Shown in pieces: positions 1 through 55,696 of a stretch of DNA of 57,791 nucleotides (the first letter of the stretch is position 1; each line of letters opens with the position of its first letter). The notes beneath the pieces are model-generated. The model was given only the letters and a program-made list of their open reading frames with translations, was not told where the DNA came from and made no database searches. The stretch comes from an uncultured Candidatus Saccharibacteria bacterium. Lineage in GTDB: Bacteria > Patescibacteriota > Minisyncoccia > Phycocordibacterales > SBAW01. The DNA lies in the NCBI GenBank assembly GCA_964355655.1, contig CAYHDT010000005.1, positions 1 to 57,791 on the forward strand, given 5' to 3'. Made by a program: the position numbers and the translations under genes.

Positions 1-435
1 GCTAAAGAGAAAGTAGAGCAGTCGCTTAAAGACTACTTCCGCCCCGAGTTCCTCAACCGCATCGCCGAGGTAATTATCTTCAATATTCTTTCTCCCGAGG
101 CCGTCAAAGAGATAGTAGGGATACAGGTTAAAGAAGTGGTGGAGCGTCTGGCGGGGAAGGATATTACTCTTACTATCAATCCTGCCGTGTATGAGTATTT
201 GGGCCGCGAGGGCTACAATCCGCATTACGGTGCCCGCCCTCTGCGCCGCCTGATACAGGATAAAATATTGACCAAGGTTGCCAGTCTAATGGTGTCGCGT
301 AGCGTGCTTTCCGGCGGCTCGGTAACGGTGGACATGTCGGCTAAAGGAGAATTTACTTTTGAGGTAAAAAAGGGCGGCCGCACCAAAGCGGTCAAAATCT
401 CCGCCAGCGCTCTGGCGGAGGAGAAGGTATCATAA
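1..435 (+). CDS. Clp/Hsp100 ATPase (ClpB/ClpC) C-terminal part, 5'-truncated by window
   Basis: Frame open from base 1: FRPEFLNRIAEVIIF ... GYNPHYGARPLRRLIQ, the AAA2/D2-small motifs. Confidence 0.92.
   Translation, partial: AKEKVEQSLKDYFRPEFLNRIAEVIIFNILSPEAVKEIVGIQVKEVVERLAGKDITLTINPAVYEYLGREGYNPHYGARPLRRLIQDKILTKVASLMVSRSVLSGGSVTVDMSAKGEFTFEVKKGGRTKAVKISASALAEEKVS
399..420. repeat. 9-bp-stem palindrome in Clp C-terminal tail
   Basis: CTCCGCCAG-CGCT-CTGGCGGAG, translated as SASALAE. Confidence 0.6.
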
Positions 436-537
436 CCAAAAATTTCCTGTACTAGGAATTCTTGTTCGGAAAATTTTAGGAAAGAAAGAAGCCCCTTTGA
501 TGTAATCTCAGGGGCCTTGGTCATGCAGTATTGGACG

Positions 538-771
538 TCAGACTTCGCGGGCGACCGTACCGCCAACGAGTCGCGCGGTTTCTTCCGGCGTGGAACCGAG
601 CTGAAGCTCGCCTTCGCGCCGAAACAGTCCACAGGGCACTGGTGGGGAGGTCTCGCCCCAGTAGTGCATGTCGAGGACGATATTGCTGGGCAGGACGATA
701 GGGCCGCCCTTGCGATAGGCTTCGATCCCGACCACATAATTCTTACCTTCAAATTCGAAAGAGCAGTCCAT
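538..771 (-). CDS. hypothetical protein (77 aa)
   Basis: GGAG 7 nt before ATG; own TTGACA-17-TAAACT promoter (845-817); hairpin/U-tract terminator at ~480-518. Confidence 0.65.
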   Translation of the reverse strand: MDCSFEFEGKNYVVGIEAYRKGGPIVLPSNIVLDMHYWGETSPPVPCGLFRREGELQLGSTPEETARLVGGTVAREV

Positions 772-816
772 TGCTCGTCTCCGTCTGTGTCACGGTCAAA
801 AAAACTGTGTGAAAAC

Positions 817-845
817 AGTTTATCACATTTAAATATCTCTGTCAA
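817..845 (-). promoter_or_regulatory. sigma70-type promoter of 538..771
   Basis: TTGACA-N17-TAAACT on minus strand. Confidence 0.6.
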
Positions 846-51714: not shown

Positions 51715-51818
51715 TGTACTGCAAAATGTTATACTACTTGTGTACATAGCTGACCCCTCGGGCAATCCGTGGGGCTAGTCTGTTGCCGCCAAGAGCAAGC
51801 TCTTGGCCAATAAACAAG

Positions 51819-54413
51819 ATGGAAGACTATATCCACATCAAAGGGGCTAAGACCCACAATTTAAAAAATATCGACCTTAAAATCCCCAGGAATAAAATGG
51901 TGGTTTTTACCGGTTTGTCCGGCTCGGGCAAATCATCGCTCGCTTTTGACACTATCTTTGCCGAGGGCCAGCGCCGCTACATTGAGTCGCTTTCCGCCTA
52001 TGCGCGGCAGTTTCTCCGTCAAATGCAAAAGCCCGACGTCGAGGAAATTACCGGCCTCTCGCCGGCTATATCTATCGACCAAAAATCGCGTTCCAACAAC
52101 CCGCGCTCGACCGTGGCGACTATTACTGAAATTTATGACTATTTGCGCATCCTTTACGCTCGCGTCGGCAAACCGCACTGCTTGGTGTGCAATCGGGAGA
52201 TACGCAAGCACAGCAATCAGGAAATTATCGAGAGTGTCGCCGAGACGGTGTCCTCCCATATTCCTAAAAAAAACAAGAAAGTTATGGGGGTAGAGATAAG
52301 CGACGATTATGTGCGCATATACGCGCCGGTGGTGGTCGGCCGCAAGGGCGAGTACTACCAGCTCCTCTACGACCTGCTTGGCAAAGGATTTGAAAAAGCG
52401 AAGATAGACGGCACGCCGGTAAACTTGCGCGACCGAGTAGAGCTCTCCCGCTACAAAAAACACGACATCGACGCTCTGGTTGATGAGATTCTTGTATCCG
52501 AGTTCCAGCGGAATAAAGCCGCCGCTCTTGAGCGGCTCGGCGAGGCGGTAGAGCGCGCGCTGCAGGAAGCCGACGGCTTGGTAAAGATAGAAGAACCGTC
52601 GTCAGACGGGTCAGGGGCCGGCAAAGAGCGCGTCATCTCGACCAAATTTATGTGCGCCTACGACGGATTTTCCTTCCCTGAAGTGGAGCCCCGTCTGTTT
52701 TCCTTTAACTCGCCGTACGGCGCGTGTCCGGCTTGCAACGGGCTCGGTACCAAGCATTTTTGGTCCGACGAGCCTTGTCCGGTATGCAAAGGCGCGCGTC
52801 TGCGCCCGGAGTCGCTTAACGTGTTTCTCGGAGATAAAAAGAATATCGTCGATATAACCAACCAATCGATCGCGGACGCGTTTGAATTCTTCGATAACCT
52901 CGAACTTTCTAAAAAAGACCACGAAATTTCGAAGACCGTAATCAAGGAGATTACCGCGCGGCTTAAGTTTATGCTCGACGTCGGGCTCGACTACCTGACG
53001 CTCGACCGCCGCGCCAACACTTTGAGCGGTGGCGAAGCCCAGCGTATCCGCTTGGCAAGCCAGTTGGGGAGCGGGCTCGTGGGCGCGCTGTATGTGTTGG
53101 ACGAGCCGACTATCGGGCTGCACCAGCGCGACAATGAGCGGCTTATTAAAACATTGCTCAATCTGCGCGACCTCGGCAACACCATTATCGTCGTCGAGCA
53201 CGATGAAGACACTATCTACGCCGGCGACTATTTGGTAGACATCGGGCCGGGCGCGGGAGTGCGTGGCGGACATATTGTCGCCGAAGGTTGGCTAGAGAAG
53301 CTCCTTACCTCCAAAAAGAACGACAGCGGCTCGGTAACGCTCTCTTACCTGCGCGGCGAAAAAGCGATAGAAGTACCCGAAACCCGCCGCGAAAAGGATA
53401 AAGGCTCGCTGAAAGTAAAAGGAGGCTCGGTGTTTAACATAAAAAACTTGGATGTGGAGGTGCCGCTCGGCAGGCTGGTTACTGTAACGGGTGTATCGGG
53501 CTCGGGGAAGTCGTCTTTCCTGTATGAAATCTTGTACGAGAACTTGCGCGCGCGGTTCGACAAGAAGTACCGCTCCAACAAAACATACAATGCCGCTAAG
53601 TTTGAGGGCAGCGAGCATTTAAGCCGCGCGATACTTATTGACCAGTCGCCGATAGGGCGCACACCGCGCAGCAATCCGGCAACTTACACAGGTTCCTTTA
53701 CTTTTATCCGCGAGCTCTTTGCGCAGACATCCGAGGCCCGCGCGCGCGGGTGGAAGGCAAACCGCTTTTCCTTTAACGTTAAGCAGGAGCGCGGGGGCGG
53801 CCGCTGCGAGACCTGCGAAGGCAACGGCACCATCGCGGTCGAGATGCACTTTTTGCCGACCGTGTACGTGACCTGCGATGTCTGCAACGGCAAGCGCTTT
53901 ACCAAAGAAACCATGGAGGTCAAATACAATAAAAAAAACATCTACGATATTTTGCGCATGACAGTTGAAGAGGCTCTGACTTTTTTTGCCGATATCCCGG
54001 CTATTTATGACCGGCTTAAAACGCTCGATGAGGTGGGCTTGGGGTACCTCGAGCTCGGGCAGTCGGCGACGACGCTCTCCGGCGGCGAGGCGCAGCGAGT
54101 CAAAATTTCCAGCGAGCTGTACCGCCCGCACCTGCAAAAGACTATCTACCTGCTCGATGAGCCGACGGTCGGCTTGCATTACGAGGACGTGCGCAAGCTT
54201 ATCGACATCCTCAACCGCCTCGTGGCGGCGGGCAACTCGGTAGTGCTTATCGAGCACAATATGGACATTATTAAGAGCTCCGACTACATCCTCGACTTCG
54301 GGCCTGAGGGCGGGGTAGGGGGTGGCAAGCTGGTAGCCAAGGGCACGCCGGAGGATGTGGCAAATAATAAAAACTCCCACACGGGCAAGTATCTCAAAAA
54401 AGTGCTTAAATAA
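51819..54413 (+). CDS. uvrA: excinuclease ABC subunit A
   Basis: [30 protein letters not shown], second ABC domain, CxxC Zn fingers. Confidence 0.98.
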
Positions 54414-54421
54414 CTGCGCCT

Positions 54422-55696
54422 ATGCAGTTGGAGCAATTTAAAAAGAAAATGAAGCGCATCCCGGACTCTCCCGGAGTGTACTTCTTTTTAGGAAAGAACA
54501 AGAAGGTGCTCTACATCGGCAAGGCCACTAGCCTGCGCGACCGTACGCGGAGCTACTTTGCCGCCGACCTTGCGGCAAACCGCAACCCGCTTATTGTGCA
54601 GATGCTCCAAAAAGCGCAGACGCTGGAGTGGCGCGAGACCGACTCAGTGCTTGAGGCGCTGCTGCTTGAAGCTGCGCTCATACGCTCGCACAAGCCCCCG
54701 GCCAATACCGATCTTAAAGACGATAAGAGTTTTAATTATGTCGTCATTACACAGGAAGAGTATCCGCGGGTGCTGGTGATAAGAGGAAAAAATCTAACCG
54801 CGGCTCCTAAGGCCAAAAAAATATTCGGCCCTTTCCCGCACGGCCTTCAATTGCGCGAAGCTATGAAGCTTATCCGGAAGATTTTTCCATATCGCGACAC
54901 GTGCACGCCGTGCAACATTACAAGGCGAAACCTTGTTAACAAGGTTTCGCCTTGTAAACCGTGCTTCAACTACCAACTGGGCCTGTGTCCGGGCGTGTGT
55001 GCGGGGGCGGTGTCCAAGCAAGAGTACGGCCGCAATGTCCGCCACATTGTACTGTTGTTTGAGGGCAAGAAAAAACAGCTTATCAAGGCGCTTAATAAAG
55101 AGATGCGCGCCGCGGCAAAAACGGAGGAGTTTGAGCAAGCCAAAGAGCTCCAGCGGCAAATGTATGCGCTTCAGCATATCCAGGATATTTCGCTGATAAA
55201 GGAAGAATATCGTAGCCCCTCGACCGCTCTCGGGTCAATTCGGTCGGACCGAATTGAGGCATACGACATTGCGCACCTGCGGGGAAGTGCTGCGGTGGGC
55301 GTCATGGTGGTGGTAGAAGGCGGGGAGGCCGCCAAGGGGCAGTACCGCAAATTTAAAATAAAAAGTGCTAAAGCAGGCGATGACCCCGGCGCGCTGAAAG
55401 AAGTGCTTTCCCGCCGGCTGGGCCATGACGAATGGCCCCTGCCGCGCCTTATTGTCGTAGACGGCTCGACCGCGCAAATAAACGCCGCCCGCAATATATT
55501 GGCCGAGTACGGCATGGCTATCCCGGTCGTGGGTGTGGTCAAGGACGAAAAACACCGCCCGCGCAACATTGCCGGCGACCGCGGGCTGGTTAAAGAAAAA
55601 GAGCGCGAAATACTTTTGGCCAACAGCGAGGCACACCGCTTTGCGATAGGCTACCATCGCAAAACGAGCCGAAGGGAGTTGACGCTTGGTAAATAG
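54422..55696 (+). CDS. uvrC: excinuclease ABC subunit C (short form)
   Basis: GVY..LYIGKA.SLR.R, EALLLE, Cys cluster, IEAYDIAH, DG...Q. Confidence 0.93.
   Translation: MQLEQFKKKMKRIPDSPGVYFFLGKNKKVLYIGKATSLRDRTRSYFAADLAANRNPLIVQMLQKAQTLEWRETDSVLEALLLEAALIRSHKPPANTDLKDDKSFNYVVITQEEYPRVLVIRGKNLTAAPKAKKIFGPFPHGLQLREAMKLIRKIFPYRDTCTPCNITRRNLVNKVSPCKPCFNYQLGLCPGVCAGAVSKQEYGRNVRHIVLLFEGKKKQLIKALNKEMRAAAKTEEFEQAKELQRQMYALQHIQDISLIKEEYRSPSTALGSIRSDRIEAYDIAHLRGSAAVGVMVVVEGGEAAKGQYRKFKIKSAKAGDDPGALKEVLSRRLGHDEWPLPRLIVVDGSTAQINAARNILAEYGMAIPVVGVVKDEKHRPRNIAGDRGLVKEKEREILLANSEAHRFAIGYHRKTSRRELTLGK
54918..54957. repeat. perfect 40-bp palindrome in frame in uvrC
   Basis: TTACAAGGCGAAACCTTGTTAACAAGGTTTCGCCTTGTAA equals its own reverse complement. 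Confidence 0.9.

Follow-up and report, generated by a model that had tools for sequence, protein, structure and literature searches.

REPs (repetitive extragenic palindromes) are extragenic by definition, have a conserved GTAG-like tetranucleotide at the hairpin foot and are mobilised by RAYT (Y1 HUH) transposases, whose genes typically have REPs on either side. Palindrome-associated transposable elements (PATEs, derived from IS200/IS605) and MITEs (miniature transposable elements with inverted repeats, mobilised by DDE enzymes when classical; Correia, ERIC, Nezha) measure 100–400 bp and carry the ends or terminal inverted repeats (TIRs) of a parent insertion sequence (IS), with a fixed target-site duplication (TSD) or target tetranucleotide. 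Selfish DNA that is translated inside essential genes has, to our knowledge, been thought peculiar to Rickettsia. The Rickettsia palindromic elements (RPEs), approximately 100–150 bp in length and with a conserved encoded peptide, lie in frame in unrelated housekeeping genes (PMC10969869; Ogata et al. 2000 as reviewed there), and the coding palindromes of Nematomorpha mitochondria are perfect inverted repeats of up to 284 bp, both arms of which encode conserved protein regions (PMC6649704). Here we describe short, mostly palindromic inserts within the housekeeping genes of a 57,791-nucleotide stretch of DNA, hereafter the window, from an uncultured Candidatus Saccharibacteria bacterium (contig CAYHDT010000005.1 of assembly GCA_964355655.1). 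We think it probable, with some reserve, that these inserts belong to several families of selfish hairpin elements of ~20–90 nt, specific to one Paceibacteria clade, that are REP/REPIN-like in form and RPE-like in consequence.

As with RPEs, the palindromic inserts lie in frame in housekeeping genes, add peptides compatible with the fold, form several families, occur in a reduced genome and have no known autonomous partner. Unlike RPEs, the elements are 21–96 nt in length (7–32 amino acids), and one and the same element is read in two frames (EINTTPTP or DKHDPNS). What is conserved is the geometry of the hairpin and its apical loop, the arms being variable; many units are inverted doublets of mini-hairpins, and the host belongs to the candidate phyla radiation (CPR), with multiple elements per protein and recurrent hot spots. 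An earlier, sequence-only reading of the window had named RPEs as the precedent; we treat this likeness, set beside RPEs by description, as an analogy and not as a family assignment. The Nematomorpha palindromes are also perfect inverted repeats inside functional genes, with both arms translated and the perfection of the hairpin kept beside coding; in contrast to them, the inserts here give non-conserved loop peptides of at most 32 amino acids, come from dispersed families and are polymorphic for presence and absence.

The window is rich in long hairpins. Inverted repeats with at most one mismatch and a loop of at most 40 nt were counted against 25 dinucleotide-preserving shuffles: 28 have arms of at least 11 nt (10.7 ± 4.1 expected), 10 have arms of at least 13 nt (0.76 expected) and 6 have arms of at least 18 nt (0 expected). 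Five of the longest six are intragenic, in rarA (37020–37088), tgt (43138–43219 and 43484–43524), uvrB (50371–50415) and uvrC (54918–54957). The sequence-only reading had listed 13 sites within coding sequences (CDSs) as palindromic, and its coordinates, host genes and peptides were right, including TKAKPLHCKGLAFV in Tgt and RRNLVNKVSPC in UvrC. When each site was folded as single-stranded DNA (ssDNA) and compared with 200 shuffles, ten of the 13 (399, 8211–8257, 11511, 12082, 16583, 37020, 43138, 43484, 50342–50415 and 54918) gave z-scores of −4.4 to −10.7, with no shuffle equally stable, and site 55215 folded moderately (z −2.7). The listing as palindromes failed at 31336 (z +1.65) and 49644 (z −0.05), where a dispersed repeat, TCGAC-N2-3-GCTCAG, is present in copies that are 24 nt long and in frame. 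Only CAAAGGCTAAACCTTTG is repeated exactly inside the window, with two loci holding four arms of it; that the other units form families is visible only after relatives are added.

Hairpins with arms of at least 12 nt and one mismatch, counted anywhere or inside open reading frames (ORFs), do not separate the clade from 80 control loci, which are UvrB loci of other CPR and non-CPR bacteria from a contig scan with a UvrB query (50–65% identical among the matches listed). Perfect hairpins with arms of at least 12 nt deep inside long ORFs have a density of 0.73 per 10 kb in the clade (other CPR, 0.04; non-CPR bacteria, 0.11), and family motif densities are 8–30 times higher in the clade than in the 80 control loci. 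Within the window, of which ~91% is coding, family hairpins are ~3–5 times as dense in the 5.1 kb of intergenic DNA as in CDSs, as would follow from the purging of most intragenic landings.

Unrelated genes and independent assemblies share at least six families, in agreement with the proposal of the sequence-only reading that several small families are colonising this genome. The comparison covered 58 kb of the source genome and ~1 Mb of related contigs, the latter biased to one family (contigs other than the window are labelled L below). Common sequences of 24–64 nt are shared by unrelated genes of independent assemblies, and those of the family that we call F-core lie in Tgt, UvrC, ParB, an aminoacyl-tRNA synthetase (aaRS), LigA, MnmA, Dus and RecG. 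Family F1, AAGGAC-NN-TCCTTA-NNN-CAGGG-NN-CCAAAGGA-NN-GTCCTT (~40 nt), occupies two UvrB sites in L002, L084 and L086, and the window has half an element at 50342. Mini-hairpins of the form AAGG-N5-CCTT number 55 units in 848 kb (13 expected) and form 17 inverted doublets there, 13 of the 17 with reverse-complement loops. F2, AAAAGGTCCTCGGRTC...CCAGACCATTTT, lies in the window Dus, in the Tgt of L002 (plus orientation) and of L085 (inverted), in ParB homologues and in other proteins of L113, L120 and L131. F3, the 24-nt TCGAC-N2-3-GCTCAG unit, is present in UvrB, HI0933, ParB, UvrC, UvrA and TopA homologues and in an aaRS. F5, built of CCCGAC-N5-7-GTCGGG doublets, is intergenic in the window and lies inside UvrA and UvrC of L002 and in an aaRS gene of L164, and a unit of the window TopA, AGTAAGTC-N-GACTTACT, was found in another gene too (L131). 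Identical sequences in unrelated genes and genomes show spread between loci. A phage origin of F-core and F1 is rejected on the absence of matches to either in 2.9 million viral contigs (IMG/VR); a 17-mer gave 3 viral matches, which for a short exact pattern may be chance.

Indels were called against syntenic relatives with 78–94% protein identity (L001, L002, L084–L087 and L189, the last being the sister genome GCA_964841545.1). At twelve of the 13 listed sites, the window carries insertions of 6–32 amino acids (aa) that preserve codons, are confined to the lineage and fall at hot spots polymorphic for presence and absence: in orthologues, the segment is missing codon for codon or the same loop holds a different hairpin element. 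The sequence-only reading had taken orthologues of equal length without a palindrome as the sign that no insertion had occurred, and that is the picture at 399, where L189 has homologous, non-palindromic sequence of near-equal length (−3 nt) in a non-conserved tail; the 399 hairpin formed in place and was not inserted. Across 14 genes at least 78% identical to L189, a census of insertions of at least 4 aa gave 15 specific to the window against 1 specific to the sister. Thirteen of the 15 hold a hairpin or family repeat, and the sister's one insert is an F2-like element. In alignments of 20–30 homologues of UvrB, TopA and ParB, the same positions are polymorphic and the hairpin peptides differ by genome. 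Clade homologues of these three proteins have further recurrent inserts (LPAGRQ / ALPAGHHGDARS, with CTGCC..GGCAG hairpins, and SAKGGSASGG), and in some of them these hot spots are longer by 40–70 residues; the element set is larger than the families described here.

F-core is the best-sampled family. A metagenome scan with the pattern GAGATRAACACGACCCCAACTCC returned 97 stretches from groundwater and soil assemblies, equivalent to ~85 distinct copies, and 80 copies align with zero gaps. The 534-kb JGI contig Ga0207663_10000002 has at least 2 copies. In the fold, GGAG/CTCC closes a conserved 18-nt loop, followed by an internal loop and a stem of 18 pairs in which the unpaired positions are fixed. 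Stem sequences vary by copy yet remain complementary, with double compensatory changes in 18 of the 22 pairs; pairing holds in 84.5% of cells against 61.7% in shuffles (0/500), and the covariation score is 0.57 against 0.18, or at most 0.28 with slid partners. Conservation peaks at the apical loop and falls off outward, so that across the 80 copies the foot of the hairpin is not conserved, and outside the shared part copies have 8–12 more bases that are locus-specific and still complementary.

Within CDSs, which hold 46 of 86 copies, F-core is mostly in the sense orientation (40 sense, 6 antisense); the hosts include Tgt (8 copies), class-I aaRS (6), UvrC (5), LigA, MnmA and Dus (4 each) and RecG (3). 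Two sense frames are open and give the peptides EINTTPTP and DKHDPNS, and the antisense frames are all three open and hydrophobic (GVGVVFI, ELGSCLS and SWGRVYL). Intergenic copies, which lie mostly at the 3′ ends of genes, have no orientation bias to their neighbours (6 versus 6). Because the antisense frames are hydrophobic and the intergenic copies unbiased, the coding-strand bias is best explained by selection on the peptide. A replication-strand origin of the bias in CDSs is rejected on the same unbiased intergenic copies. The complement of F-core as written folds better in 74 of 86 copies (Wilcoxon p 6e-13; 33:7 among intergenic copies), and A:C mismatches outnumber G:T on the F-core strand (63 versus 12), an asymmetry that hints at a single-stranded active form.

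At the protein level, the inserts sit in surface loops, linkers or non-conserved tails, the location that the sequence-only reading had proposed for frame-preserving copies. Tgt, with its sites A (43138–43219) and B (43484–43524), has ~47 extra residues where the Zymomonas mobilis structure has 5, and a 9-aa gap (AKPLHCKGL) in the same alignment. The UvrB segment AHSTGSGQ is an 8-aa gap in the Bacillus caldotenax UvrB alignment, and UvrB residues 442–473 fall between adjacent residues 427 and 428 of that protein; TopA and Dus are also gapped at the listed sites in alignments to solved structures. In an AlphaFold model of UvrB made from 30 sequences, of moderate confidence (mean pLDDT of 66.8), the 32-aa insert (444–472) is an unstructured coil with pLDDT below 50 at a strand-to-helix junction, and the 8-aa insert lies in a turn or coil joining two strands. 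In Dus, the insert occupies the linker joining the two domains, and in ParB a hypervariable linker ahead of a conserved C-terminal motif. The intact reading frames suggest that the inserts are translated as extra peptides. RNA splicing of an intron is rejected, as the inserts keep frame and are stop-free, and the lone exception, in the tgt of L001, breaks its gene. That tgt (4105–5387 of L001) is called as two ORFs with the break at the site-B hairpin, a single 19-nt unit with a 22-nt length difference from the window, and is either a frame-breaking element copy or a sequencing error at the hairpin.

Palindromes are also made and kept locally, with arms that grow by copying of the flank, a part of the palindromy that the sequence-only reading had not foreseen. 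The native right flank of Tgt site A, CCGGCTGTG (PAVY), is conserved throughout the orthologues. Its complement, the left arm CACAGCCGG, is present only in the window, L001, L002 and L123; elsewhere among the orthologues this place is taken by unrelated sequence of equal length. The outermost arm CACAGCCGG is a copy of the native flank. The window and L002 have the same outer arms around different inner elements (F-core versus F2), and in L085 the F2 element is inverted. Site B is occupied in L001 by one unit, ACAAAGG-ACCGT-CCTTTGT, in L098 and L125 by a doublet whose loops are ACCGT/ACGGT, and in the window by a doublet with CTAAA/TTTAG loops, both loops having changed in concert relative to L098 and L125.

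If the inserts are selfish hairpin elements, they would copy to new loci via a folded single-stranded intermediate, the copying agent being a structure-specific enzyme encoded elsewhere in the genome or replication-coupled templated copying. Landing or survival would favour existing hairpins and a few permissive surface loops of proteins, and because 91% of the genome is coding, most landings would be intragenic. After insertion, the arms would stay complementary and extend into native flanks through arm-to-arm copying, by template switching or intra-hairpin conversion, and selection would retain copies that have a length in multiples of 3 and are stop-free, hydrophilic and located in loops or linkers. 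The enzyme-driven, non-autonomous mobility named in the sequence-only reading is likewise something we infer.

Several observations weigh against this reading. As the sequence-only reading had noted, no mobilising enzyme is visible in the window: Pfam searches found no transposase, integrase or HUH domain in ~60 window ORFs. None appears among the top families of the 108 ORFs that flank intergenic F-core copies, which are housekeeping genes, and a phmmer search with E. coli RayT against 6727 ORFs (826 kb of related contigs), a weak, single-sequence test, gave only E>2. Neither a TSD nor a conserved target motif is evident at clean pairs of empty and filled sites; the AHSTGSGQ site of UvrB has no direct duplication of more than 1 nt, and 54918 has only an ambiguous CCGTGC repeat. 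Four palindromes (37020, 12082, 399 and 8231) have no relatives in the limited local contig set. The F-core loop owes part of its conservation to the search, in which it was the pattern, the wobble evidence on strand is mixed, with one column (23/74) having 30 G:U pairs on the other strand, and translation is read from intact reading frames. Finally, the outer arms are locus-specific yet complementary, which would not be the product of an ordinary cut-and-paste or copy-and-paste element, and much of each 'element' could thus be locally made.

The same features define the relation to REPs and REPINs. Shared with these are the short imperfect palindromes, the long-hairpin inverted doublets (11511, 43484, 50371 and 54918), the lack of a TSD, the strand-asymmetric fold and the intergenic copies at gene 3′ ends. 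In contrast, the elements here are mostly intragenic and, to judge by their frames, translated (at least 13 intragenic against 4 intergenic family copies in the window), their units are shorter (13–24 nt), no GTAG-type foot is conserved across 80 F-core copies, and no RAYT was found in the window or, by the weak search above, in 826 kb of related contigs. PATEs and MITEs are likewise small, non-coding mobile DNA that is sometimes intragenic and in frame, and PATEs share the absence of a TSD and the hairpins in ssDNA; unlike these groups, no parent IS, TIRs or fixed-length TSD was seen here. PATEs have distinct subterminal hairpins at the left and right ends, lie 3′ of a fixed target of 4–5 nt and go with a TnpA (Y1) gene in the genome; here each element is one symmetric hairpin, and its left flanks are not conserved; the lack of a TSD is compatible, and no TnpA was found in the DNA examined. 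Given their size and intragenic location, and as no RAYT, GTAG-type foot, TSD or parent IS was seen, the elements are not members of RPE, REP, MITE or Rfam families as defined. We found no earlier description of such elements in CPR bacteria in the full-text literature.

A more far-reaching version is possible, and we put it forward tentatively: hairpin modules, defined by an apical loop that is conserved and a stem of fixed geometry, would be copied between loci as an unrecognised CPR class and grow by flank copying, their agent being a structure-specific ssDNA enzyme or a transposase-independent, replication-coupled templated insertion. If true, such modules would be a standing source from which the essential proteins of ultra-small genomes gain new linker and loop peptides.

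Rather doubtful, in our view, is the absence of any mobile element. Palindromes would then arise de novo at each locus by template switching or fold-back synthesis and persist because the lineage tolerates them, perhaps for want of a hairpin-cleaving nuclease, with shared motifs being convergent or the result of switches between loci. Template-switch mutations, in which replication switches strands and creates hairpins, are reportedly the subject of work by Loytynoja and Goldman in 2017 and Monttinen and Loytynoja in 2022; we know of no case in bacteria in which the process forms families genome-wide. Much of the local evidence has this character. The equal-length conversion at 399 and the Tgt outer arm would both be substitution clusters that yield the exact reverse complement of nearby sequence, and changes that look compensatory could arise in single events; the outer arms of ~85 F-core copies differ by locus and are still perfectly complementary, single and doublet forms with loops that change together occur at one Tgt site and an inverted F2 at the other, some palindromes are unique, and neither a TSD nor a transposase was found. 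Local copying, however, does not reach to identical 23–64-nt non-flank sequences in unrelated genes of different genomes, as seen for F-core, F1, F2, F3, F5 and the TopA unit. It also leaves unexplained the F3 units, which are non-palindromic yet dispersed as exact 24-nt in-frame indels, and the fixed geometry of F-core with its conserved unpaired positions.

It is improbable that the hairpins are selected signals in mRNA or DNA (attenuators, stability or binding elements, or pause sites) or that the peptides are adaptive linkers. Strong covariation around a conserved apical loop is what structured RNAs show, intergenic copies lie toward gene 3′ ends, the hairpin at 5149 is terminator-like, and folding is strand-asymmetric; yet presence and absence vary among orthologues 85–93% identical, one site can hold different elements interchangeably, most CDS copies have their better-folding strand antisense to the host gene, copies between genes are randomly oriented, and the sister genome works with almost none of the elements. 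No Rfam family matches. A known RNA family was rejected on the same search: Rfam 15 gives only tRNAs window-wide, and for 43000–43600 only mir-2831, whose 40 bits fall short of the gathering score of 90. An assembly or amplification artefact of chimeric inverted repeats is very hard to credit: palindromes are a known class of amplification artefact and the L001 tgt frameshift falls exactly at a hairpin, but independent assemblies (ENA, NCBI and JGI samples) carry the same inserts at identical codons, long ORFs remain intact through all inserts, and the families have phylogenetically structured variation with compensatory changes.

If the inserts are indeed selfish elements, CPR bacteria would extend the range of translated in-gene selfish DNA with elements of much smaller size and greater diversity, as many as two or three to a protein. 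They could explain much of the length variation and the 'odd low-complexity inserts' of CPR housekeeping proteins, since nearly every indel of at least 7 aa between close relatives is such an element, which matters for annotation, alignment, phylogenomics and structure prediction. The host proteins function in DNA repair, tRNA modification and chromosome maintenance. An unusual architecture with a conserved loop, arms that covary, outer arms specific to the locus and no TSD points to an undiscovered structure-specific ssDNA recombinase or to template switching that forms families, and the persistence in genes of perfect 40–45-nt palindromes with 0–3-nt spacers bears on hairpin processing and repair in these bacteria.

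The individual sites, on the plus strand unless stated otherwise, differ in architecture. Starting from the left end, the ClpB tail (399–420) has a 9-bp stem, CTCCGCCAG-CGCT-CTGGCGGAG, that encodes ISASALAE 15 nt before the stop codon (z −4.9), and 826 kb of CPR contigs hold no relative of it. The ParB hypervariable linker (8211–8257, z −4.7) combines an F3-like unit, CCCCTCGACTAGGCTCGGGG (SPSTRLG), with a 13-bp-arm palindrome, CAACCAGCTCATC-T-GATGAGCTGGTTG, the right arm of which extends into a conserved ..VDDRSK motif; the insert adds 6 aa (18 nt) relative to L189, and the same linker in orthologues holds F-core or F2 elements. TopA has two inserts on the minus strand. GSKSDLLGKSDLP (11511–11553, z −7.3) repeats the self-complementary unit AGTAAGTC-N-GACTTACT as an inverted doublet with perfect 13-nt arms, adds 7 aa (21 nt) relative to L189 and is polymorphic among 20 homologues; the 12-aa ARPDGSGHSGGE (12082–12115, z −4.7) is a nested hairpin with outer arms CCGCCCGA/TCGGGCGG and inner arms CCGGA..TCCGG, adds 12 aa (36 nt) relative to L189 and, among the 20 homologues, is present only in the window and P0136.

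The 26-aa Dus insert, EGLEKRSSDLLSSPTATQARPFFQTL (16583–16660, z −5.8), is an F2 element with an inner hairpin and outer arms GAAGGG/CCCTTC, and corresponds to exactly 26 additional aa (78 nt) relative to L189 Dus. In the HI0933-like flavoprotein, the 8-aa insert TSTTLSAG (31336–31359; 24 nt longer than in L085) is the F3 unit TCGACTACGCTCAG, 24 nt long and without a hairpin. The RarA/MgsA insert ARPVRDKSAKRTADRSRISNG (37020–37088, z −10.7) is a 69-nt Y-shaped palindrome in which a perfect 18-bp outer stem surrounds two hairpins, AGTCCGC..GCGGACT and the F5-like CCGAC..GTCGG, and it adds 21 aa (63 nt) relative to L087. Tgt site A (43138–43219, z −7.2), which is vacant in L087, is an F-core element with the apical loop GGAG-AGATAAACACGACCCCAA-CTCC and 24-bp arms that encodes VTAGEKVPFSGEINTTPTPTKETFSPAV. 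Tgt site B, TKAKPLHCKGLAFV (43484–43524, z −10.0), is a perfect 20+20-nt palindrome formed by an inverted doublet of ACAAAGG-CTAAA-CCTTTGCA, and adds 9 aa (27 nt) relative to L002, L084, L085 and L087.

UvrB site 1, AHSTGSGQ (49644–49667), is the 24-nt F3 unit GCCCATTCGACGGGCTCAGGGCAA without a hairpin, a clean 24-nt insertion relative to L001, L085, L086 and L087 that is also present in L002, L084, L101 and L171. UvrB site 4 (50342–50415, z −9.7) is a composite of the half F1 element AAAGGACTCTCCTTTGGCTCCCCGTCTGAA and a 21+21-nt doublet of CAAAGG-TTTAG-CCTTTG; it is part of the 32-aa insert (96 nt longer than L001), in place of which L002 and L086 have other elements. The 12-aa UvrC insert ITRRNLVNKVSPCK (54918–54957, z −10.0) is a perfect 20+20-nt palindrome with zero spacer, an inverted doublet of ACAAGG-CGAAA-CCTTGT that adds 36 nt relative to five orthologues; the single unit is found in L147 and L152. 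Further on, the variable UvrC segment SPSTALGSIRSDRIE (55215–55257) joins an F3-like unit, CCCCTCGACCGCTCTCGGG, to a 10-bp hairpin, TCAATTCGGTC-G-GACCGAATTGA; it is 2–4 aa longer than in orthologues, and L002 has the related unit TCGACTACGCTCA.

Three intragenic sites add to the earlier list. The 4-aa MiaA insert LQNT (5856–5881, minus strand) lies inside a 13-bp-arm palindrome, TTCCAGTATTTTG–CAAAATACTAGAA, and as an insertion call is weak, the MiaA pair being 56% identical. The 8-aa RelA/SpoT insert PSAADAGK (8748–8771, minus strand) has a small CTGC..GCAG-type hairpin, and relA 9933–9959 is a possible further intragenic site. The 7-aa UvrA insert PSSDGSG (52596–52616, plus strand) has a 5-bp hairpin, CCGTC-GTCA-GACGG, and the orthologues in L002 and L086 have other inserts there.

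Related units between genes, also anticipated by the sequence-only reading, occur at four places. An F5 doublet (4923–4960, z −4.7) reads CCGAC-GCCTTG-GTCGG / CCCCGAC-TGAAAAC-GTCGGGG. The other three are AAGG-N5-CCTT hairpins: TTTCCAAGG-ACTCT-CCTTGGAAA (5149–5175, z −4.4), which is followed by a T-run and is terminator-like, ACACAATATAAAGG-ACCGG-CCTTTATATTTGTGT (36436–36470, z −6.8) and GCAAGG-TTTAA-CCTTGC (51156–51186, z −3.4), directly 3′ of the uvrB stop codon. Two strong intergenic hairpins beside T/A runs, 32963–33004 (AACAAAAAGCCGCCCCA..TGGGGCGGCTTTTTGTT) and 10416–10446 (GCTAAACCCCGGA..TCCGGGGTTTCGC), look like ordinary intrinsic terminators outside the families.

The window encodes a ClpB C terminus, MiaA, ParB, RelA/SpoT, TopA, DprA, SerRS, Dus and a HolB-like protein, pilin-like genes, an ABC ATPase, the HI0933-like flavoprotein and a SpoU methylase, and RarA, MsrA, VKOR, FKBP, Tgt, UvrB, UvrA, UvrC and Ddl, with five tRNAs. 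Best matches of its proteins have 75–93% identity, and the named ones are Candidatus Kaiserbacteria, Adlerbacteria and Paceibacterota, which places the source among the Paceibacteria (Kaiserbacteria-like) of the CPR/Patescibacteria. A 14–15-nt motif, CCAACATCGTACCA(G), occurs three times (19907–19921, 21348–21362 and 21893–21907), with a partial copy near 20525. The first copy is downstream of an ORF ending at 19889 and the other two are ~35 and ~135 nt upstream of consecutive small genes, the first of which has a pilin N-terminal methylation motif; the motif may be a shared promoter or 5′-leader element.

The database ParB protein (357 aa) and several homologues begin with MMLPSRDFESRASTNSAIP, which is the opposite-strand translation of tRNA-Leu (7226–7310), and the conserved ParB start, MLQFHNNAIFW, is near 7348 (region 7226–7350). 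The N-terminal extension is probably a gene-calling artefact that is 'conserved' through the tRNA. At 2243–4153, a 636-aa protein joins a T4SS-pilin-like segment to a C-terminal SLT lytic transglycosylase domain; it is 49% identical to the syntenic protein of L189, and the large indels in it (24, 85 and 43 aa) are something other than hairpin elements. SerRS (13627–14910; 7827–9089 in L189) is 39% identical between the two genomes, against 78–90% for its neighbours, which suggests that serS was replaced by a distant allele. These two proteins, at 39–49% identity, were too divergent for indel calls and were left out of them.

Between tgt and uvrB, the window has a 4.9-kb block of six ORFs (44097–48953), including one with a Peptidase_S74 domain (45499–46461; endosialidase-chaperone, tail-fibre-like). 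The two genes adjoin or overlap in L002, L084, L085 and L087, and in L001 the place is taken by another block, which likewise includes a Peptidase_S74 ORF; the interval looks like a variable island or a hot spot of prophage remnants.

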